This document shows positions 7,303 through 14,610 of a stretch of 18,236 bases of DNA, one piece after another. The number at the start of each line of letters is the position of its first letter. Position 1 is the stretch's first letter. The notes beneath the pieces were generated by a model. It saw nothing but the letters and a program-made list of their open reading frames with translations. It was not told where the DNA came from and ran no database searches. The stretch is from a virus (taxonomy: Duplodnaviria; Heunggongvirae; Uroviricota; Caudoviricetes), in IMG/VR virus record IMGVR_UViG_2695420732_000030, positions 1 to 18,236 of that record; one strand, 5' to 3'. A program made the translations under genes and the position numbers.

Positions 7303-7764
7303 CTACTGGTTACGTTTCTTTAGTGCCAGCATGTTCTCGAAGGCTTCCTCGTAGAGCTTGTTTAGTCCACGTAGCTGGTTAAGGAGTTTGGCTTTTTCTG
7401 ACGCAGGTAGAATCTCGAAGAGGTTAAGTAACTCTGCCTGTTCTTCATTGACCAGCCTCCATCCTTTGCCTGAAAAGCTATCATCATAAGTATCTGATGA
7501 TCTTACATAATTCATTAAGTCTTTAAGGTCTTCTCGAATGTCCTCTGGTTTTACCTTTAACAGAGCCGCAAATTTTAGCGCAGCGTCGGTATTTACCGGT
7601 ATCTTGCCGTTCAGATACTGGCTAACGGTGCCTTGAGATTCGAATCCCAACAACTCAGCCGCCAACTCTTGAGTCAGCTTCAGCTCTTTTTTTCTTGCAT
7701 TCCATGCGGCTTTTAAATTCTTGCTCGCTTCTGGAGTTGCAATCACTTCGCGTGTTTTTTTCAT
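7303..7764 (-). CDS. Prophage repressor, HTH XRE/cI-type (RacR-like), 153 aa, no S24 peptidase domain
   Basis: HTH motif LTQELAAELLGFESQGTVSQYLNGK; divergently transcribed from a Cro-like gene; the acidic/helical C-terminal half lacks the Ser-Lys autocleavage module. Confidence 0.8.
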   Translation of the reverse strand: MKKTREVIATPEASKNLKAAWNARKKELKLTQELAAELLGFESQGTVSQYLNGKIPVNTDAALKFAALLKVKPEDIREDLKDLMNYVRSSDTYDDSFSGKGWRLVNEEQAELLNLFEILPASEKAKLLNQLRGLNKLYEEAFENMLALKKRNQ

Positions 7765-7841: not shown

Positions 7842-7871
7842 TTGCTCGAGGCATAACGTAGAAGGTTGGCT

Positions 7872-8147
7872 ATGAACTTAAGAGACTATTTAAAAGAGAA
7901 ACATATCACCCAGCTACAGTTTGGGAAGCTAACGGGTTTATCTCAGGTGCATGTAAGTCGAGTGCTGGGGGGCTATGAAAGATTCAGCCCTGAAAAAGCA
8001 TTACGTGTTGCTGAAGTAACGAATTTCGAGGTTACACCTCATGAACTCCGGCCTGATATCTACCCGAATCCAACCGACGGTTTACCTGTTGGATGTAAGG
8101 CTAACACACAAAATACACAGGAGTTGATTCATGAAAATCAGGCATGA
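7872..8147 (+). CDS. Cro/YdaS-like HTH DNA-binding protein, 91 aa
   Basis: HTH ITQLQFGKLTGLSQVHVSRVLGG; ATG at 7872 with AAGG SD (track start 7866 is a TTG); first gene rightward of the repressor; its stop overlaps the next gene's start (ATGA). Confidence 0.7.
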   Translation: MNLRDYLKEKHITQLQFGKLTGLSQVHVSRVLGGYERFSPEKALRVAEVTNFEVTPHELRPDIYPNPTDGLPVGCKANTQNTQELIHENQA

Positions 8148-8553
8148 GCACATCGAATCGGTGCTGTTAGCCCTGGCAGCTGAAAAAGGGCAGGCATGGG
8201 TAGCCAGTGCAATTACTGAAGAATATCTGCGCCAGGGAGGCGGCGAATTGCCCCTGGTACCAGGCAAGGACTGGAATAATCAGCAGAACATCTATCACCG
8301 TTGGTTAAAAGGTGAAACGAAAGCGCAAAGGGAAAAAATTCAGAAACTGATCCCTGCGGTTCTGGCAATTCTTCCGCGCGAGCTGCGTCACCGACTCTGC
8401 ATCTTCGATACCCTGGAACGCCGTGCATTACTGGCGGCGCAGGAAGCGTTGAGTACGGCAATTGATGCGCATGATGATGCAGTCCAGGCCGTTTACCGGA
8501 AAGCACATTTCAGCGGTGGTGGGTCGCCCGGCGATTCTGTCGTAGTGCATTGA
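8131..8553 (+). CDS. ydaT: YdaT-like protein (toxic when derepressed in Rac), 140 aa
   Basis: 140 aa starting MKIRHEHIESVLLALAAEKGQ..., same length and position as Rac YdaT as recalled; AGGAG SD at 7-nt spacing. Confidence 0.65.
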   Translation: MKIRHEHIESVLLALAAEKGQAWVASAITEEYLRQGGGELPLVPGKDWNNQQNIYHRWLKGETKAQREKIQKLIPAVLAILPRELRHRLCIFDTLERRALLAAQEALSTAIDAHDDAVQAVYRKAHFSGGGSPGDSVVVH

Positions 8554-8597
8554 TTGAAATTAATCGTGCCGGATTGTTTTGTTCGGTATCAGTTAAA

Positions 8598-8618
8598 TGT
8601 AACGCTGCGAGCGTTACA
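8598..8618. repeat. Palindrome TGTAACGCT-GCG-AGCGTTACA, copy 1 of 3, 13 nt upstream of the O-like gene start
   Basis: Perfect inverted repeat read directly; the same half-site TGTAACGC/GCGTTACA recurs at 8790-8810 and 8998-9016. Confidence 0.6.
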
Positions 8619-8630
8619 AGGTGAAAACAA

Positions 8631-9425
8631 ATGGCTTCAAACTGGATAAAGCTCGAGGTTATTACGCCGGATAAGCCGGAAATATTCAGGCTTGCTGAGA
8701 TTCTGAATATTGATCCAGATGCCGCATTAGGGAAGGTTATTCGCTTCTGGGCATGGGCGGATCAACAAATGATAGACGGTAATGCAGATTGTAACGCTCG
8801 CGGCGTTACAAAAAGTGCAATAGATCGCATCACTTTTATGGCTGGTTTTGCTGATGCGTTAATTCAGGTTGGATGGCTGGTCGAAAATGACGGTGGGCTT
8901 TCTCTACCTAACTTTGAACGTCATAACGGGAAAAGCTCTAAAAAACGGGCGGTTACAAACGAGCGAGTTACAAAAATACGCGAACTGAAACGAAAAGGTA
9001 ACGCTGGCAGCGTTACACAAACGGATCAAAAAGCGTTACCAGAGGAAGAGGAAGAGGAAGAGGAAGATATAAATACTGATCTCCCCCTAAATCCCCCTCG
9101 CCAAAAACGAGCGTCTAAAAAATTCGAGCCGGAGGCTATCGAGCTACCTGACTGGTTGCCGGAAACACTCTGGCATGAGTGGGTTCAGTTCAGGCAGGCA
9201 TTGCGAAAACCGATTCGAACGGAGCAGGGCGCTAACGGGGCGATACGGGAACTGGAAAAATTCCGTCAGCAGGGTTTTACACCTGAGCAGGTGATTCGAC
9301 ACAGCATCGCCAATGAATACCAGGGCTTGTTCGTACCGAAAGGTGTTCGGCATGAGACGTTGCTCCGACAGGTTAACACCGTCTCGTTGCCGGACAGTGC
9401 GATCCCGCCAGGCTTCAGGGGGTAA
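8631..9425 (+). CDS. ydaU: Replication initiation O-like / YdaU-like protein (DUF1376-like), 264 aa, with internal poly-Glu
   Basis: Position immediately upstream of the DnaC-like gene; AAGGTGA SD; palindromic repeats embedded in the coding sequence, as for ori within lambda O; the (GAGGAA)4 tract at 9042-9065 encodes the poly-Glu run. Confidence 0.7.
   Translation: MASNWIKLEVITPDKPEIFRLAEILNIDPDAALGKVIRFWAWADQQMIDGNADCNARGVTKSAIDRITFMAGFADALIQVGWLVENDGGLSLPNFERHNGKSSKKRAVTNERVTKIRELKRKGNAGSVTQTDQKALPEEEEEEEEDINTDLPLNPPRQKRASKKFEPEAIELPDWLPETLWHEWVQFRQALRKPIRTEQGANGAIRELEKFRQQGFTPEQVIRHSIANEYQGLFVPKGVRHETLLRQVNTVSLPDSAIPPGFRG
8790..8810. repeat. Palindrome TGTAACGC-TCGCG-GCGTTACA, copy 2, inside the O-like CDS
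   Basis: Perfect 8-bp arms with a 5-bp spacer; direct GTTACAAA repeats follow at 8952-8959 and 8967-8974. Confidence 0.6.
8998..9016. repeat. Palindrome GTAACGC-TGGCA-GCGTTAC, copy 3, inside the O-like CDS; extra half-site GCGTTAC at 9033-9039
   Basis: Read directly; same half-site as copies 1 and 2, at ~200-bp spacing. Confidence 0.55.
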
Positions 9426-9431
9426 CAGACC

Positions 9432-10172
9432 ATGAAAAATATTGCGACAGGCGGCGTTCTGGAGCGTATCCGCAGACTGACCCCACCACATGTAACCGCC
9501 CCATTCAGAACGGTTGCGGAGTGGCGTGAGTGGCAACTTACTGAAGGCCAGAAACGTTGCGAGGAGATCAACCGTCTGAATCGTCAGTTGCGGGTGGAAA
9601 AAATTCTGAATCGCTCTGGCATCCAGCCGTTGCACCGTAAATGCTCGTTTGCGAATTACCAGGTGCAGAACGACGGCCAGCGATACGCGTTAAGCCAGGC
9701 GAAATCCATCGCCGATGAACTGATGACCGGGTATACAAATTTTGCGTTCAGCGGAAAACCTGGTACCGGGAAGAATCACTTAGCGGCAGCTATCGGGAAT
9801 CGCCTGTTGAAAGACGGTCAGACAGTGATTGTGGTTACCGTGGCTGATGTTATGAGCGCCCTGCACGCCAGCTATGACGACGGGCAGTCAGGCGAAAAAT
9901 TTTTGCGTGAACTGTGCGAAGTGGACCTCCTGGTTCTTGACGAAATTGGCATCCAGCGTGAGACGAAAAACGAGCAGGTGGTACTGCACCAGATTGTTGA
10001 CCGCCGGACGGCATCACTGCGCAGTGTCGGGATGCTGACAAACCTGAATCATGCCGCAATGAGCACGCTTCTTGGTGAGAGGATTATGGACCGGATGACC
10101 ATGAACGGTGGTCGTTGGGTGAATTTTAACTGGGAGAGCTGGCGGTCAAACGTTGGACGTCAGGGTATGTGA
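9432..10172 (+). CDS. ydaV: DnaC/IstB-like AAA+ helicase loader (YdaV-like replication protein P analogue), 246 aa
   Basis: Walker A GKPGTGKNHLAAAIG and Walker B DLLVLDEIG; start 7 nt after the O-like stop. Confidence 0.85.
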   Translation: MKNIATGGVLERIRRLTPPHVTAPFRTVAEWREWQLTEGQKRCEEINRLNRQLRVEKILNRSGIQPLHRKCSFANYQVQNDGQRYALSQAKSIADELMTGYTNFAFSGKPGTGKNHLAAAIGNRLLKDGQTVIVVTVADVMSALHASYDDGQSGEKFLRELCEVDLLVLDEIGIQRETKNEQVVLHQIVDRRTASLRSVGMLTNLNHAAMSTLLGERIMDRMTMNGGRWVNFNWESWRSNVGRQGM

Positions 10173-10197: not shown

Positions 10198-10968
10198 ATG
10201 GAAACCGTATTACATGCACTGAAAGCGATGGGAAAAGCCAATTCTGTTGAACTGGCGGCACGAATTGATATCAGCCGTGAAGAAGTTATCAACGAACTGT
10301 GGGAGCTCAAAAAAAATGGCGTTGTTGATAAAACGGGTCACACCTGGTTTCTGGCTGTCGAAGGTGAATCCCGGGTAACCGAAGAGCGGCCAGTAAAATC
10401 TGAAACACAGGATATGCTGACCGAAGAGGTCGCTCCAAAAGTTAGCGCTAACATGATGATTGAGTTTATCGCTCAGGAGGGGGCTAAAACCTGTGAAGAA
10501 ATAGCGGGTAAGTTCGGTGTCAGTACTCGCAAGGTTGCTTCCACGCTGGCGGTGGTAACCGCAACGGGGCGGCTGGCACGCGTTAATCAGAACGGTAGAT
10601 TTCGTTACTGCATGCCGGGCGATAATTTACCAGCAGAGCCGAAAGCCGCGCTGGTAACGGAAAGTGATGGTAAGGCCTTTCCTCAGCCAGCAGGTGCTGC
10701 GTTACCAGTCCGGGAAGCCGCAACACAGGAAGAAATTAAAACAGAAACTGTGGCGGACATTGTGCAGCCGTTGCCATCGTTTACCGAAACGCAAGCAGAT
10801 GAGCTGATTTTTCCGTCCCTTCGCAGGGCAAACCTGGCGCTGCGCAGGGCGAAAAGTGATGTTCAGAAGTGGGAGCGAGTCTGCGCCGCGCTGCGGGAGC
10901 TGAACAAGCACCGGGATATTGTTCGGCAGATTGTCGATTCATCCGGTCGTATTGTGTCGGAAAAGTGA
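10198..10968 (+). CDS. Hypothetical phage protein (YdaW/DUF1627-like), 256 aa
   Basis: GAGGTGA SD 7 nt upstream of ATG; position after the DnaC-like gene as in Rac; family assignment is by recollection only. Confidence 0.6.
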   Translation: METVLHALKAMGKANSVELAARIDISREEVINELWELKKNGVVDKTGHTWFLAVEGESRVTEERPVKSETQDMLTEEVAPKVSANMMIEFIAQEGAKTCEEIAGKFGVSTRKVASTLAVVTATGRLARVNQNGRFRYCMPGDNLPAEPKAALVTESDGKAFPQPAGAALPVREAATQEEIKTETVADIVQPLPSFTETQADELIFPSLRRANLALRRAKSDVQKWERVCAALRELNKHRDIVRQIVDSSGRIVSEK

Positions 10969-10983
10969 TTGCCGGAGGCGCTT

Positions 10984-11376
10984 ATGGCAAAAGTATTTAC
11001 ACCAGAAGAGCGGGAAGAAGTGAGGGCGCGCATTGTGGAATTCGTGCGCCTGAGCGGACGAGAAACTTTTCGACAACTGGCAGATAAAACGGGTGTCAGT
11101 AAGACCGCTATTCGTCGTTTATCTGGTGCGCTTGCGGCCAGTGGTGATGTCTGGCTCTCTGGTTGCGGGGTATTTCTATCAGAGCAGGCGTATCGCGTAT
11201 GGCGTAAGACACCGGAGAAGGCTGCTGACCCGACACTGATTCGAAAGTTACCTGACGGAGAAATACGTCGTTACAACAGACGGCAGAACATAATTTGTCG
11301 TGAGTGCCGCCAGAGCGAAGTTATGCAGCGTGTGCTGGCGTTCTATCGGGGTAATTTTCAGGAGGTGATGGAGTGA
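10984..11376 (+). CDS. Hypothetical protein, 130 aa, with CRECRQ motif
   Basis: ATG at 10984 with GGAGG SD at 5-nt spacing (track start 10969 is a TTG); stop overlaps the next start (GTGA). Confidence 0.6.
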   Translation: MAKVFTPEEREEVRARIVEFVRLSGRETFRQLADKTGVSKTAIRRLSGALAASGDVWLSGCGVFLSEQAYRVWRKTPEKAADPTLIRKLPDGEIRRYNRRQNIICRECRQSEVMQRVLAFYRGNFQEVME

Positions 11377-11669
11377 GGGTGAGGGTTTATATCGCCGGTC
11401 CGATGACCGGGTATAAAAATTTCAACCGTGAGGCGTTCCACAAGGCGGAAGAGGAACTGAAACGGGAAGGGCATACAGTCTTAAACCCGGCAGTACTTCC
11501 GGACGGGCTGACACAGCCGCACTACATGGATATTTGCATGGCAATGATTCGTTGCGTGGATGCGATTTACATGCTGAATGGCTGGCAGCGGTCAGCGGGC
11601 GCTAAGGCAGAGCTGGCACTGGCGGAGAAACTGGGACATACGGTGATTTATCAGGAGGTGGCTCAATGA
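11373..11669 (+). CDS. DUF4406 / nucleoside 2-deoxyribosyltransferase-like small protein, 98 aa
   Basis: N-terminal VYIAGPMTG motif typical of this fold; GTG start with GGAGG SD at 7 nt; stop overlaps the next ATG (ATGA). Confidence 0.6.
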   Translation: MRVRVYIAGPMTGYKNFNREAFHKAEEELKREGHTVLNPAVLPDGLTQPHYMDICMAMIRCVDAIYMLNGWQRSAGAKAELALAEKLGHTVIYQEVAQ

Positions 11670-12385
11670 GAGAGGTTAACTATGAGGCGCTTCGTGAAGC
11701 AGCAGAGAAAGCAACTAAAGGATGCTACATCGTAGGGCATACATCGGGCAATCAGCATGGGAATATAACAGGAGTTTTTGTTTGTCAAAAATGGAAAGGA
11801 GAACCCGGTGGCGTAATTGCAGAATGTCATGTTAACTGCCTGGTTGAAACAGATGCTCAGGCTTACGCAAACGCTGAATTTATTGCTGCCTTTAATCCAA
11901 ATGTTGCGCTGGCACTACTGGATGAACGGGAAAGAAACCAGCAATACATCAAATCACGCGACCAGGAGAACGAGGAGATTGCGCTTACGGAAGGGAAGCT
12001 GCTAATCGAAAACGGCCGGCTTGTTGCCGATACGCTACGCCACTTAGCTGATAACGAAATCGACTCTGATTATTTTGCTATCACCTCAACGAATGAGAAC
12101 GGTACTGAAATTGATCATGAGATGGCTATTACCGATTACGCACTGCAAGCTGCCGGAACTGTAGACGAATTGGTTGCGGCGTTGGAATCCGCAGAGAAGC
12201 GCATTGCAGAACTGGAAGCACGGGAAATATCGCTCCCAGAACGTAGCAGCATGCTTCATCGAACAGATTTTCACGATGATTACCAAACGGTAATGGCATA
12301 CAAAGTTTCTGAAGTCATCGCTGCAATCCGCGCCGCTGGCATTCGCATCAAAGGAGAGGAGCATGGAAATAAAACCAGAAGATGA
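11666..12385 (+). CDS. Hypothetical phage protein, 239 aa (possibly Ea22-like, acidic coiled-coil C-terminus)
   Basis: ATG overlapping the upstream stop; no motif confidently recognised. Confidence 0.6.
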   Translation: MREVNYEALREAAEKATKGCYIVGHTSGNQHGNITGVFVCQKWKGEPGGVIAECHVNCLVETDAQAYANAEFIAAFNPNVALALLDERERNQQYIKSRDQENEEIALTEGKLLIENGRLVADTLRHLADNEIDSDYFAITSTNENGTEIDHEMAITDYALQAAGTVDELVAALESAEKRIAELEAREISLPERSSMLHRTDFHDDYQTVMAYKVSEVIAAIRAAGIRIKGEEHGNKTRR

Positions 12386-12719
12386 GTTAAGCAATATCGT
12401 TTTATTTCCGGTAAAAGAGGATGACCCACGTAATCAGGTTAATTTTCTCTATGAGCCATCGGAAAGACCATATTGCCATCACGCCTCTGTCCGGGTTGAC
12501 GAAAAAGAGCGTCAGGTCCGCTGTAAAATCTGCGGTGCAGTTGTGGAGCCATTTGACTGGATGCTCTCTGTGGCGAAAAGAGAAACCAGACTGGCAGATG
12601 ATGTAAGGATCTTGCGCCAGGAGGAACGGGAAAGGCGGAGAAATATAGAAAAGCTAATTCAGATTGAGCGTAACGTGAAAGCGCGGATACGCAGGGTGAC
12701 AAAATCCAGAACTGAATAA
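12363..12719 (+). CDS. Hypothetical protein, 118 aa, with CHH...CKIC cluster and Arg-rich coiled-coil tail
   Basis: ATG at 12363 with AGGAGAGGAG SD; overlaps the upstream gene by 23 nt. Confidence 0.55.
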   Translation: MEIKPEDELSNIVLFPVKEDDPRNQVNFLYEPSERPYCHHASVRVDEKERQVRCKICGAVVEPFDWMLSVAKRETRLADDVRILRQEERERRRNIEKLIQIERNVKARIRRVTKSRTE

Positions 12720-12767
12720 TTAAATTTAGCTCTGTTAAAAATTTAATCCTTAACCGGAGGTATATCA

Positions 12768-12980
12768 ATGTCAAACGCACAGAAAGTTATTAACGCTGAA
12801 AAATATAACGAGTGGGTGAAAAAGTTCTCAGAGCAGATTTTTAAAATTACTGGCGACGAGAATGCGGCAAAAAATGAATTAGAGCCGTGGACACCTGAAG
12901 GTGTCGACCCAAATTATTGCTGGTGGGATGTTGATCCAGTTGATGCTGCAAATGAAGCTATGAGTTATCACAACGATTAA
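12768..12980 (+). CDS. Hypothetical small acidic protein, 70 aa
   Basis: GGAGG SD 8 nt upstream of ATG 12768. Confidence 0.55.
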   Translation: MSNAQKVINAEKYNEWVKKFSEQIFKITGDENAAKNELEPWTPEGVDPNYCWWDVDPVDAANEAMSYHND

Positions 12981-13180
12981 TGTCAGGAGGCCGCCCGAAA
13001 GGGCGGTAATGAAAAGTGACTGAATTAACCAAAGAGAAATTAATCGAAGAAGCCAAATTAAAAATAGCGATTGCGAAATGCTACCCCAATTCAGGGATGG
13101 CACGGGTATAGGGCGAGTTATTCAAAATTGCACTGGCATAGCTGGAAGCAGATCCAGTTAAACGAGTTAACTCAGATCAG

Positions 13181-13894
13181 ATGCACCGAGTCTGCTTAGA
13201 AGCTAATCGCTATTTAGATAAATATGACGCGATGGCGAAAGAGGTAAATAAGTTGCTTGGACGCATCGCCCCGCCAGCGCCAGTATTTAACGGCGAATAC
13301 GGTGACGCATATCAGGGCGCTCGTGAAGACCTGTCCATCTGGAAACGGCGAGCGCTTGAAGCTGATGAGCACGTTCGGCGACTGGAGCAAATCAATGACC
13401 ACATGGTGAAAGAGGCGCAGGGAGAATCACGCATGGGCGAGCCTGTAATACGTGAGCCAGCACCGGTAGTGCCTGAAGAAGCAACTCCGGAAAACGTAGA
13501 AATGCTCTCTGGCTATGTTTCAACGTACAAATTAACCGATAGCGAGCGCGATATTGCTGCCGAAATATGGAACGCCTGCCGCGCCGCCATGCTTCAGGCT
13601 GGAAACTTTCGGGAAAATAAGGGTTCGTCAACCAATAATTTTCGGGAAATCTCGGAAACGTCAACCAACTATCCGGTAACTCCGGATGGTTGGATAAGCT
13701 GTAGTGAGCGAATGCCGGATGATGGTCAGCACGTAATTATTTTATGTGATGGCGCATTCGTTCTTTATGCGCAATATCGAGACGGTGAGTTTTTTGATGT
13801 AGTCCGTAATGGTGATGAATTTTTCGAAACACAGAGCCGCAATGTAACCGACTGGATGCCGCTACCAGAACCGCCGCAGGAGGTGCGCCAATGA
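13181..13894 (+). CDS. Phage protein with C-terminal DUF551-like domain, 237 aa
   Basis: C-terminus WISCSERMPDDGQHVIIL...VTDWMPLPEPP resembles the DUF551 signature as recalled; weak SD. Confidence 0.6.
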   Translation: MHRVCLEANRYLDKYDAMAKEVNKLLGRIAPPAPVFNGEYGDAYQGAREDLSIWKRRALEADEHVRRLEQINDHMVKEAQGESRMGEPVIREPAPVVPEEATPENVEMLSGYVSTYKLTDSERDIAAEIWNACRAAMLQAGNFRENKGSSTNNFREISETSTNYPVTPDGWISCSERMPDDGQHVIILCDGAFVLYAQYRDGEFFDVVRNGDEFFETQSRNVTDWMPLPEPPQEVRQ

Positions 13895-13974
13895 TCTGGC
13901 CTGAAGCCTTTGCAATTACAGGCGTTGCTATAGCTATTGATTTTTTAGTATATGTTATTTGTCGGTGGGGGTAA
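13891..13974 (+). CDS. Tiny hydrophobic peptide, 27 aa (MIWPEAFAITGVAIAIDFLVYVICRWG), candidate membrane peptide; not in ORF track
   Basis: GGAGG SD 7 nt upstream; ATG overlaps the upstream stop (ATGA), suggesting translational coupling; single hydrophobic helix. Confidence 0.4.
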   Translation: MIWPEAFAITGVAIAIDFLVYVICRWG

Positions 13975-14009: not shown

Positions 14010-14114
14010 ATGTCGGATGATATTTCACTGGCAATGGAAGGTGCGCTGGCTGTTATTGCTGTTGTGGGCGTTTACTGCCTGGTTGTGTTTTTGATGGATC
14101 GACTAGGGAACTGA
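14010..14114 (+). CDS. Tiny hydrophobic peptide, 34 aa (MSDDISLAMEGALAVIAVVGVYCLVVFLMDRLGN); not in ORF track
   Basis: GGAGGG SD 4 nt upstream of ATG 14010; single predicted transmembrane helix. Confidence 0.4.
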   Translation: MSDDISLAMEGALAVIAVVGVYCLVVFLMDRLGN

Positions 14115-14184: not shown

Positions 14185-14359
14185 TGCTGCGGGTGCTTGA
14201 GGCTATCTGTCTCGGGCATGAACACCAACGGCAGATAGAGAAAAGCCCCAGTTAACATTACGCGTCCGGCAAGACGCTTAACATTAATCTGAGGCCATAT
14301 CTATGCTCTACATACGTAGGTTAGCCTCTTACGTGCCGAAAGGCAAGGAGAAGCAGGCT

Positions 14360-14515
14360 ATGAAGCAGCAAAAGGCGATGCTAATCGCCCTGATCGTCAT
14401 CTGTTTAACCGTCATTGTGACGGCACTGGTAACGAGGAAAGACCTCTGCGAGGTACGAATCCGAACCGGCCAGACGGAGGTCACTGTCTTCACAGCTTAC
14501 GAACCTGAGGAGTAA
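14360..14515 (+). CDS. Hok/Gef-family type I toxin, 51 aa
   Basis: MKQQKAMLIALIVICLTVIVTALVTRKDLCEVRIRTGQTEVTVFTAYEPEE shows the Hok signature (TM helix, RKxLCE, AYE); AAGGAG SD; track ORF 14303..14515 trimmed to ATG 14360. Confidence 0.8.
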   Translation: MKQQKAMLIALIVICLTVIVTALVTRKDLCEVRIRTGQTEVTVFTAYEPEE

Positions 14516-14583: not shown

Positions 14584-14610
14584 AACCCGCTTCGGCGGGT
14601 TTTTGTTTTT
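14584..14610 (+). terminator. Intrinsic terminator after hok (AACCCGC-TTCG-GCGGGTT then TTTTGTTTTT)
   Basis: GC stem with TTCG tetraloop and T-run, read directly. Confidence 0.75.

Follow-up and report, generated by a model that had tools for sequence, protein, structure and literature searches.

A seven-gene block of an Escherichia coli prophage is probably a mosaic accessory stretch of the lambda ren/nin type

A close described counterpart of the locus analyzed here is the ren-nin region of phage lambda, in which the pR operon runs from P through ren and the genes ninB to ninI to Q. A second relevant element is Ea22, a protein of three-part mosaic architecture that biases development toward lysogeny in lambda and Stx phages, that has been reported to form tetramers in both, and whose C-terminal domain in Stx variant 2 is DUF551 (PMC10834534).

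The window (the whole stretch of DNA that was analyzed, 18,236 nucleotides) contains seven open reading frames, all on the plus strand, between a YdaU/DnaC-like replication pair (8631 to 10172) and a downstream flank of hok/sok, DUF1367, YbcO and a DUF1133/Q-type antiterminator. We consider it probable (about 0.8) that this block is a mosaic accessory (ren/nin-equivalent) stretch in the rightward delayed-early operon of a Rac-type lambdoid E. coli prophage, rather than one functional system. Lambdoid accessory regions of this kind are known, and the families present here (Ren, DUF4406, Ea22 and DUF551) are already catalogued. The genes, which span the 10198 to 13894 given in an earlier sequence-only reading, are as follows.

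10198 to 10968, plus strand: g1, 256 aa, tandem winged-helix protein, DUF1627 family
10984 to 11376, plus strand: g2, 130 aa (135 aa with TTG 10969), lambda Ren homologue by sequence, DUF977 family
11373 to 11669, plus strand: g3, 98 aa, DUF4406, predicted minimal nucleoside 2-deoxyribosyltransferase (NDT)/DNPH1 fold, GTGA overlap with g2
11666 to 12385, plus strand: g4, 239 aa, Ea22 homologue with Ead_Ea22 N-terminus, coiled coil and short C-terminal domain, ATGA overlap with g3
12363 to 12719, plus strand: g5, 118 aa, CHCC zinc ribbon and, C-terminal to it, a 55-residue basic helix
12768 to 12980, plus strand: g6, 70 aa, small acidic protein (pI 4.4)
13181 to 13894, plus strand: g7, 237 aa, N-truncated coiled coil and C-terminal DUF551, acidic (pI 4.1)

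These are real genes, with strong Pfam matches for five of the seven, PHROG matches for all seven and dN/dS values of 0.09 to 0.74; the intact genes are under purifying selection. The family calls made previously (DUF4406, Ead/Ea22 and DUF551) are correct by Pfam.

All seven genes had been described as translationally coupled, with overlaps of ATGA, GTGA or up to 23 nt. All three kinds of overlap are real (GTGA at 11373 for g2/g3, ATGA at 11666 for g3/g4, and 23 nt at 12363 to 12385 for g4/g5), but g1/g2, g5/g6 and g6/g7 do not overlap. Tight coupling would be limited to g1 through g5, where the only other junction is a g1/g2 spacer of 0 or 15 nt (15 nt if g2 starts at ATG 10984); spacers of 48 nt and 200 nt precede g6 and g7, respectively. 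The first gene starts 25 nt downstream of the DnaC-like gene with GAGG 10 nt before its start, and g6 has GGAGG 7 nt before its start. The window has exactly three copies of the cassette CAGGAGGTG-N5-RTGA (11359, 11652 and 13877), compared with 0.04 expected by chance. Translation would proceed largely by coupling, from Shine-Dalgarno sequences that appear to lie within the last part of the preceding gene in each case. The unit appears to continue beyond 13894, where it had been taken to stop, since two small membrane ORFs that were absent from the original ORF set extend the operon:

13891 to 13974, plus strand: 27-aa hydrophobic membrane ORF, coupled to g7 via the ATGA cassette CAGGAGGTGCGCCAATGA
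14010 to 14114, plus strand: 34-aa membrane ORF with AGGAGG upstream

The 27-aa ORF carries no annotation in the RefSeq relative, and the 34-aa ORF is WP_001278450.1 in relatives, where it lies between the DUF551 gene and hokD.

Promoter-like and terminator-like sites within 10198 to 13894 show no excess over the shuffled expectation, and none flanks the block genes. Since the block lacks both a promoter and a terminator of its own, its transcription would most likely start at pR and include cro, ydaT, ydaU and the ydaV-like genes once the phage is induced or infects a cell. As an extension of the rightward early operon, the block would be silent in a repressed lysogen. An alternative is that the genes are lysogenic-conversion cargo that the repressed prophage expresses to the benefit of the host (morons). 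Lambdoid prophages do carry accessory genes at this location, and the neighboring hok/sok and sRNAs (AgvB and STnc100) are autonomous prophage cargo. However, the lack of promoter-like excess and of flanking terminators, a G+C content of 0.43 to 0.55 that is similar to that of the flanks, the co-orientation and coupling of the genes with the early operon, and the action of the homologues Ren and Ea22 in phage development (PMC3640518; PMC10834534) make this alternative very improbable.

The g1 product matches Pfam DUF1627 over residues 91 to 245 (4.4e-97; 322.6 bits versus a cut-off of 28.1) and phrog_630 (8e-133), with weak winged-helix matches at residues 3 to 60 and 86 to 137. Its dN/dS is 0.36 to 0.45, and its differences from a 98.9% identical relative are concentrated in the interdomain linker (codons 59 to 74). 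DUF1627 is named "LygF" in some phage records, a name for which a literature search returned nothing functional; the only mentions of the family in the literature use it as a synteny marker close to the Pas sRNAs.

The likely start of g2 is ATG 10984, which has GGAGG 5 nt upstream and is also the PGAP start in the 98.9% identical relative. Its product matches Pfam DUF977 (5.4e-41; 140 bits versus a cut-off of 22.1), phrog_142, "Ren-like exclusion protein" (1.3e-42), and lambda Ren itself by BLASTP (29% identity, E of 4e-9), with which it has a C-terminal ECRQS..M.RVLA.Y motif in common. Judged from these alignments, g2 is a homologue of lambda Ren, and it lies in a Ren-like position downstream of the replication genes, with the DUF1627 gene between it and the DnaC-like gene. 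Because of this homology, its most likely role would be to shield phage development from Rex-type exclusion. Both g2 and g5 had been read as Cys-cluster proteins; this applies to g5, in which C38, H40, C54 and C57 are invariant, but not to g2, where only the second Cys of the CxxC aligns with Ren. The statement that none of the genes has an established function was likewise too strong, because genetic phenotypes have been published for Ren and Ea22. In contrast, the view that these are accessory, non-housekeeping genes between the replication genes and Q is borne out, with no match to a characterized essential phage function.

The g3 product belongs to DUF4406 (3e-38; 130.6 bits versus a cut-off of 22), a sister family of PF05014, against which it scores 14.8 bits, below the threshold of 28.8. 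Sequence searches of the PDB with g3, as a single sequence and as a profile, gave no sequence-level match, and those with g1, g2, g4, g5 and g7 yielded no meaningful relatives. In structure prediction, which had been proposed as a check, the AF2 model of g3 (pLDDT 89.5) matches NDT, DNPH1, MilB and BcmB in a Foldseek search of the PDB (probability 1.0, TMq 0.69 to 0.78 for most, best E of 8e-5), and the top 49 matches consist of these enzymes and one uncharacterized Enterococcus faecalis protein (7m5h). Based on the model, we are confident that g3 has the Rossmann-like NDT/DNPH1 N-glycosidase fold. Tyr6, Asp53 and Glu80 are invariant among 30 homologues and, in a comparison of spacing, are placed like Tyr7, Asp62 and Glu88, which are mutated in C. 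thermalis NDT entries. The dN/dS of g3 is 0.17. We propose that g3 most likely acts on a (deoxy)nucleoside or nucleotide, splitting its N-glycosidic bond via a ribosyl-Glu80 intermediate, and that the nucleotide pool would thereby be altered. In a literature search, DUF4406 turned up in three papers, none of them functional. A more specific version, in which g3 is a minimal phage nucleotide N-glycosidase that destroys or remodels a specific nucleotide early (a defense signal, a dNMP or a modified nucleotide) and may pair with the preceding Ren-type winged-helix protein as a two-gene counter-exclusion module, is speculative, and we think it unlikely.

The next three genes would form one Ea22 cassette. 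The g4 product matches Pfam Ead_Ea22 (PF13935; 4e-31; 108.9 bits versus a cut-off of 27) and lambda Ea22 (68% identity over 44 aa, E of 4e-17) and by sequence similarity is a true Ea22 homologue. The g5 product matches phrog_1621 (1.7e-54), and its AF2 model (pLDDT 72.8) has strands at residues 43 to 46 and 51 to 54 and a helix at residues 63 to 117; a fold search with this model gave only a nonsignificant match to a TFIIB zinc ribbon (E of 0.27). In P0125 and P0122 the same module is fused in frame after ...AEKRIAELEARE. The g5 protein is thus a detachable Ea22 C-terminal module, here a separate ORF that would be expressed as a separate protein. The 23-nt overlap of a g5-type gene with an Ea22 gene is also found in phage ArgO145. 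The g6 product matches phrog_4659 (3.7e-50) and has no Pfam match; it travels with g5, downstream of which it is also found in O157 prophages and ArgO145. The dN/dS is about 0.1 for g5 and 0.13 for g6.

The 200-nt gap between g6 and g7 is not intergenic but holds the N-terminal remnant of the g7 frame:

12985 to 13007, plus strand: AGGAGG and then a G+C hairpin with a GAAA loop, the hairpin separating that Shine-Dalgarno sequence from GTG 13016
13016 to 13180, plus strand: g7-frame remnant, N-terminal 55 codons in frame with g7, with TAG at 13109 to 13111 and at 13139 to 13141

The RNA fold of 12970 to 13030 has an energy of -18.3 kcal/mol (z of -3.2). We rejected the hairpin at 12990 to 13007 as a canonical terminator because it has no T-tract, and O157 locus L003 has the same 12985 to 13007 element, letter for letter, ahead of an intact gene. 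The first ~140 nt of the remnant, up to a recombination joint (near 13127 to 13156), are identical to the 5' end of an intact 123-aa O157 gene except for GAG-to-TAG and TCG-to-TAG changes. In locus L005, the frame of a related pL-operon gene is open, starts at an upstream ATG and encodes 314 aa. Both TAG codons are present in all 8 hybrid alleles examined, and neither 7 viral contigs nor locus L001 yielded a hybrid allele lacking the two. Amber readthrough by a phage suppressor tRNA was also rejected, because the three tRNAs have anticodons CAT, TCG and TCT. Since the two in-frame TAG codons cut the frame, g7 is N-truncated; translation may nevertheless begin at ATG 13181, which has no Shine-Dalgarno sequence and is also the PGAP start in relatives. 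The g7 product matches Pfam DUF551 at residues 170 to 233 (5e-21; 75.8 bits versus a cut-off of 22), and the gene has a dN/dS of 0.38 to 0.74 and a 33-nt tandem duplication at 13604 to 13668. We conclude that it encodes an Ea22-variant-2-like coiled-coil/DUF551 protein that is truncated or decaying.

The two nonsense codons, the gene remnant and its recombination scar could mean that the whole block is decaying, functionless cryptic-prophage DNA, as could a frameshift in g4 of the 98.9% identical relative (a 1-nt insertion at window position 12008) and the relatively high dN/dS of g4 and g7 (0.4 to 0.7). However, g1 through g6 are intact and have good ribosome-binding sites, the dN/dS of g3, g5 and g6 is 0.09 to 0.17, the coupling cassettes are kept, and genes of the block are also found in inducible Stx phages. 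We therefore regard wholesale decay as quite improbable.

The distribution of the genes bears on whether they work together. The whole block is present in 26 of 5,426 complete E. coli genomes (97 to 98.9% identical), while its parts are far more frequent (g1 plus g2 in 431, g3 in 1,216, and g5 plus g6 in 476); any one complete genome in the collection covers at most 78% of the window. Here the block is joined to a YdaU/DnaC-type replication module and to a DUF1367/YbcO/DUF1133 late-control module, and in L001 the same block adjoins a DnaT-like/P replication module. O157 prophages keep g1, g2, g5 and g6 without g3 and g4, or have other inserts, Stx2a phage ArgO145 has the g4-g5-g6 module in its pL operon, and a g7-type gene is found elsewhere upstream of xis/int. 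No conserved DUF4406 neighborhood was found across species; in 80 loci from other species, other block genes occur once or twice. Within E. coli, DUF977 adjoins DUF4406 in 8 of 12 sampled copies, and the order replication genes-DUF1627...DUF551-34-aa ORF-hokD recurs in several prophages, so there may be some importance to position and perhaps to cooperation between pairs of genes.

This bears on the possibility that the seven genes are one coherent system, e.g., for counter-defense or for DNA or nucleotide modification around the DUF4406 enzyme, with DNA-binding and zinc partners. The tight packing and coupling of g1 through g5, the common DUF977/DUF4406 adjacency, and weak g3 matches to PHROG families annotated as MazG-like pyrophosphatase or hydrolase, which hint at nucleotide chemistry, are consistent with such a system. 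Against it are the rarity of the full set relative to its parts, the other-species loci, the O157 prophages, and the truncation of one member and frameshifting of another in a near-identical relative. In addition, a PADLOC (PADLOC-DB) scan gave only generic winged-helix similarity for g1 and g2 and no match for g3 through g7, and an NCBIfam scan of all seven proteins gave nothing specific. We consider a coherent system most unlikely. Nor is the block "cargo," as had been suggested, in the moron sense, given its lack of its own promoter and terminator and of a distinct composition. Instead of a functional unit, we see a patchwork in which five or more modules have been exchanged independently. 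The modules would be the winged-helix pair g1 and g2, the putative enzyme g3, the Ea22 cassette, the remnant at 13016 to 13180, and g7.

The block has little significance beyond annotation. Its value lies in corrections: a Ren homologue, a free-standing Ea22 C-terminal zinc-ribbon module, an amber-truncated Ea22-variant-like DUF551 gene and a 200-nt remnant. DUF4406, which has a confident NDT/DNPH1 fold and which about one-fifth of complete E. coli genomes carry, would reasonably merit biochemical work, though without urgency.

Compared with the lambda ren-nin region, the block has the same position, from the replication genes to Q, and similarly small, overlapping genes read by coupling. Only Ren is common to both: the nin genes are replaced by DUF4406, the Ea22 cassette and DUF551, DUF1627 intervenes between the helicase-loader gene and the Ren homologue, and hok/sok, DUF1367 and YbcO follow further downstream. 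Both the Ead_Ea22 N-terminus and the coiled coil of g4 recur in the lambda and Stx-phage Ea22 proteins (PMC10834534). The C-terminal domains of these proteins are swapped mosaically, and g5 is such a domain in P0125 and P0122. However, Ea22 normally lies in the leftward operon, in the exo-xis region, while here it is in the rightward operon after the replication genes and the zinc-ribbon module is a separate ORF. Stx Ea22 variant 2 has its DUF551 in common with g7, which is truncated and lacks the Ead_Ea22 N-terminus. The modeled Rossmann-like fold of g3 is that of NDT, the DNPH1/Rcl dNMP N-hydrolases and the MilB/BcmB CMP N-glycosidases, but these enzymes have 119 to 167 aa compared with 98 aa for g3, which therefore lacks the C-terminal part. 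Equivalent regions are found in Rac-type and lambdoid prophages of E. coli O157:H7 and O145 in RefSeq, which have the DUF1627...DUF551-34-aa ORF-hokD frame in common with this locus.

The window covers the half of an E. coli Rac-type lambdoid prophage that runs from the integrase to Q, with the following layout:

Minus strand: integrase, RecT, RecE and the RalR/RalA toxin-antitoxin locus
7303-7764: HTH_3-type (cI/RacR-like) repressor gene, after the RalR/RalA locus
7866-10172, plus strand: YdaS/Cro-like, YdaT-like, YdaU-like and DnaC/IstB-like genes, followed by the block
10198-10968, plus strand: g1, DUF1627, a tandem winged-helix protein
10984-11376, plus strand: g2, DUF977
11373-11669, plus strand: g3, DUF4406, 98 aa
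11666-12385, plus strand: g4, Ea22 homologue
12363-12719, plus strand: g5, zinc-site protein
12768-12980, plus strand: g6, 70-aa acidic protein
13181-13894, plus strand: g7, carrying DUF551
Beyond the block: hok/sok, a strong terminator, DUF1367, YbcO, a DUF1133/Q-type antiterminator, three tRNAs and two sRNAs
16910-17118, plus strand: sRNA STnc100
17119-17178, minus strand: anti-GcvB sRNA AgvB

The RalA sRNA, antitoxin of the Rac prophage RalR/RalA type I system, lies at 1557-1735 (Rfam, 225 bits). The hok/sok-type type I locus at 14191-14515 (Rfam sok, 107.9 bits) encodes a 51-aa HokD-like toxin (14360-14515), upstream of which an in-frame ATG at 14303 opens a 70-aa ORF containing the toxin; the strong intrinsic terminator downstream is at 14584-14601. 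Downstream of the Q-type gene, 16549-17178 holds tRNA-Met(CAT), tRNA-Arg(TCG) and tRNA-Arg(TCT) and then the two sRNAs, STnc100 and AgvB, a position typical for EHEC prophages. Among the complete E. coli genomes of the collection, coverage of the window never exceeds 78%.

All seven plus-strand ORFs read from the sequence alone are present at these coordinates and are genuine genes, five of their products matching Pfam families far above threshold and all seven matching PHROGs. In pairwise comparisons with diverged alleles, dN/dS is 0.09-0.17 for g3, g5 and g6, 0.3-0.45 for g1 and g2, and 0.4-0.7 for g4 and g7. Variation in g1 is concentrated in the linker between its two domains.

The sequence-only reading described seven translationally coupled genes. 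Based on the coupling cassettes and the junction layout, this is well supported from g1 to g5 but does not extend across the 48-nt g5/g6 spacer or the 200-nt g6/g7 spacer, where ATG 13181 has no Shine-Dalgarno sequence. A 25-nt spacer separates the DnaC-like gene from g1. There is no overlap between g1 and g2: a mechanically called TTG at 10969 abuts the g1 stop codon, and GGAGG lies 5 nt ahead of ATG 10984, the start that PGAP uses in relatives. The g2/g3 junction is GTGA, g3/g4 is ATGA, and g4 and g5 overlap by 23 nt. A uniform cassette, CAGGAGGTG-N5-RTGA, is found at g2/g3 (11359-11376), g3/g4 (11652-11669) and the junction of g7 with a 27-aa ORF (13877-13894), three sites in the window compared with 0.04 expected. 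The predicted coupling of g7 to this previously unlisted ORF is likewise well supported. The Shine-Dalgarno sequence of the cassette translates to Gln-Glu-Val and so gives the upstream proteins a QEVxx C terminus, and the cassette may double as a short stretch of homology through which modules are exchanged. Two small hydrophobic ORFs, each with a strong Shine-Dalgarno sequence, prolong the operon: 13891-13974 (27 aa), unannotated in RefSeq relatives, and 14010-14114 (34 aa), annotated as WP_001278450.1. We found no enrichment of promoter-like or terminator-like sites in the block, and its base composition is unremarkable.

The proposal that the block is a single cargo unit did not survive comparison with 5426 complete E. 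coli genomes. At a coverage of at least 80%, the whole 3.7-kb block is present in only 26 (97-98.9% identical, mostly O145 and other STEC), far fewer than carry its parts (g1+g2 in 431, g3 in 1216 and g5+g6 in 476), and these parts are recombined elsewhere. One O157 prophage has DUF1627-DUF977-g5-g6-123aa-DUF551, lacking g3 and g4, and another has DUF1627-hyp-DUF4406-DUF4752-hyp-Ea22-hyp-DUF551. In Stx2a phage ArgO145 an Ea22-g5-g6 module, with an identical 23-nt overlap, lies in the leftward operon, and g6 is always preceded by g5 in O157 prophages and ArgO145. In L001, the locus of a 98.9% identical relative, the neighbors of the same block are a replication module of the DnaT-like/P type and a late region with RusA/DUF968. 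DUF977 adjoins DUF4406 in 8 of 12 sampled E. coli copies; outside this species, in a set of 80 DUF4406 loci, homologues of g2, g4, g5 and g7 occur once or twice. What is conserved is a frame of replication genes, DUF1627, variable genes, DUF551, the 34-aa ORF and hokD.

The spacer upstream of g7 is itself a gene remnant. Positions 13016-13180 share the g7 reading frame. From 13016 to a joint at ~13156, only two substitutions, GAG to TAG (13109) and TCG to TAG (13139), distinguish the sequence from the 5' end of a gene that is intact (123 aa) in O157:H7 prophages; near 13127-13156 there is a switch to a different allele. Another genome has this second allele in its leftward operon, ahead of xis/int. 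There an upstream ATG with a good ribosome-binding site opens the frame, which encodes 314 aa with an analogous N terminus (...ELARIALASLEADPV...). The in-frame remnant with its two amber codons, together with the allele switch, shows that g7 (237 aa) represents the last four fifths of a recombinant gene, the first 55 codons having been cut off. The joint is present in 38 of the 5426 genomes, and all eight hybrid alleles examined carry both TAGs, which are therefore a fixed feature of one lineage. Amber suppression by the prophage tRNAs was rejected, since these are not suppressors. At 12985-13018, AGGAGG is followed by a 7-bp G+C hairpin with a GAAA loop and GTG 13016; when folded, the hairpin, between Shine-Dalgarno sequence and start codon, would restore normal spacing. 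O157, in which the downstream gene is intact, has the identical hairpin. Within g7, a 33-nt tandem duplication (13604-13668; NFRENKGSSTN / NFREISETSTN) lies in the linker ahead of the DUF551 domain.

g4 is a bona fide Ea22 homologue. In L001 (12926-13189; window position 12008) a 1-nt insertion frameshifts it, leaving a pseudogene and a "hypothetical protein." This frameshift and the g7 truncation show that parts of the block are dispensable in lysogens.

The g5 model is a small zinc ribbon, with an invariant C38/H40/C54/C57 site, followed by a 55-residue basic helix; a fold search with this model found no significant neighbor. In other genomes the g5 module continues an Ea22 N terminus and coiled coil as an in-frame fusion at ...AEKRIAELEARE|IKPEDEL..., and the AEKRIAELEAREI motif of these fusions is also found in g4, there ahead of a different C-terminal domain, which identifies g5 as an Ea22 C-terminal module turned separate ORF. 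In P0160, an E. coli protein of 201 aa, roughly the first 85 residues of g5 run in frame into the C-terminal part of Ren/DUF977; this further recombination product shows that g5 can precede a Ren gene. In Ea22 variant 2 of Stx phages, DUF551 makes up the C-terminal domain (PMC10834534); it also occurs in YfdS of prophage CPS-53 (PMC4776307). Thus the Ea22 mosaic takes in three or four of the seven genes. A pro-lysogenic phenotype has been published for this mosaic (PMC10834534), and g4, g5 and g7 might modulate the lysis-lysogeny decision in an Ea22-like manner.

g2 matches phrog_142 (1.3e-42) and is 29% identical to lambda Ren (E, 4e-9), sharing the C-terminal motif ECRQS..M.RVLA.Y; by sequence, it is a Ren homologue. 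Toothman and Herskowitz reportedly found in 1980 that Ren protects lambda from Rex exclusion, and g2 may have a similar anti-exclusion role. Like lambda ren, it sits just past the replication genes of its operon, and in lambda cro-cII-O-P-ren form a single pR transcript (PMC3640518). The block would be transcribed from pR within the early operon.

The g3 model is confident (pLDDT 89.5), and its best structural neighbors are nucleoside 2-deoxyribosyltransferases, DNPH1/Rcl and the CMP N-glycosidases MilB and BcmB. Y6, D53 and E80 are invariant, with spacing resembling Y7/D62/E88 of the C. thermalis enzyme. g3 scores too low for PF05014, and a C-terminal segment present in these structural neighbors is missing from it, so it represents a sister family and is not itself a member. 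Glu80 would mediate N-glycosidic cleavage. A counter-defence use of DUF4406, as a minimal phage nucleotide N-glycosidase, seems improbable. We found no link between the block and known defence systems.

Three small points are new at the level of annotation: the truncation of g7 by amber codons, the status of g5 as an Ea22 module that has become detached, and the uniformity of the QEV coupling cassette. Every block protein has near-identical RefSeq entries and a catalogued family, and an accessory stretch between the replication genes and Q is a textbook region type of lambdoid prophages.
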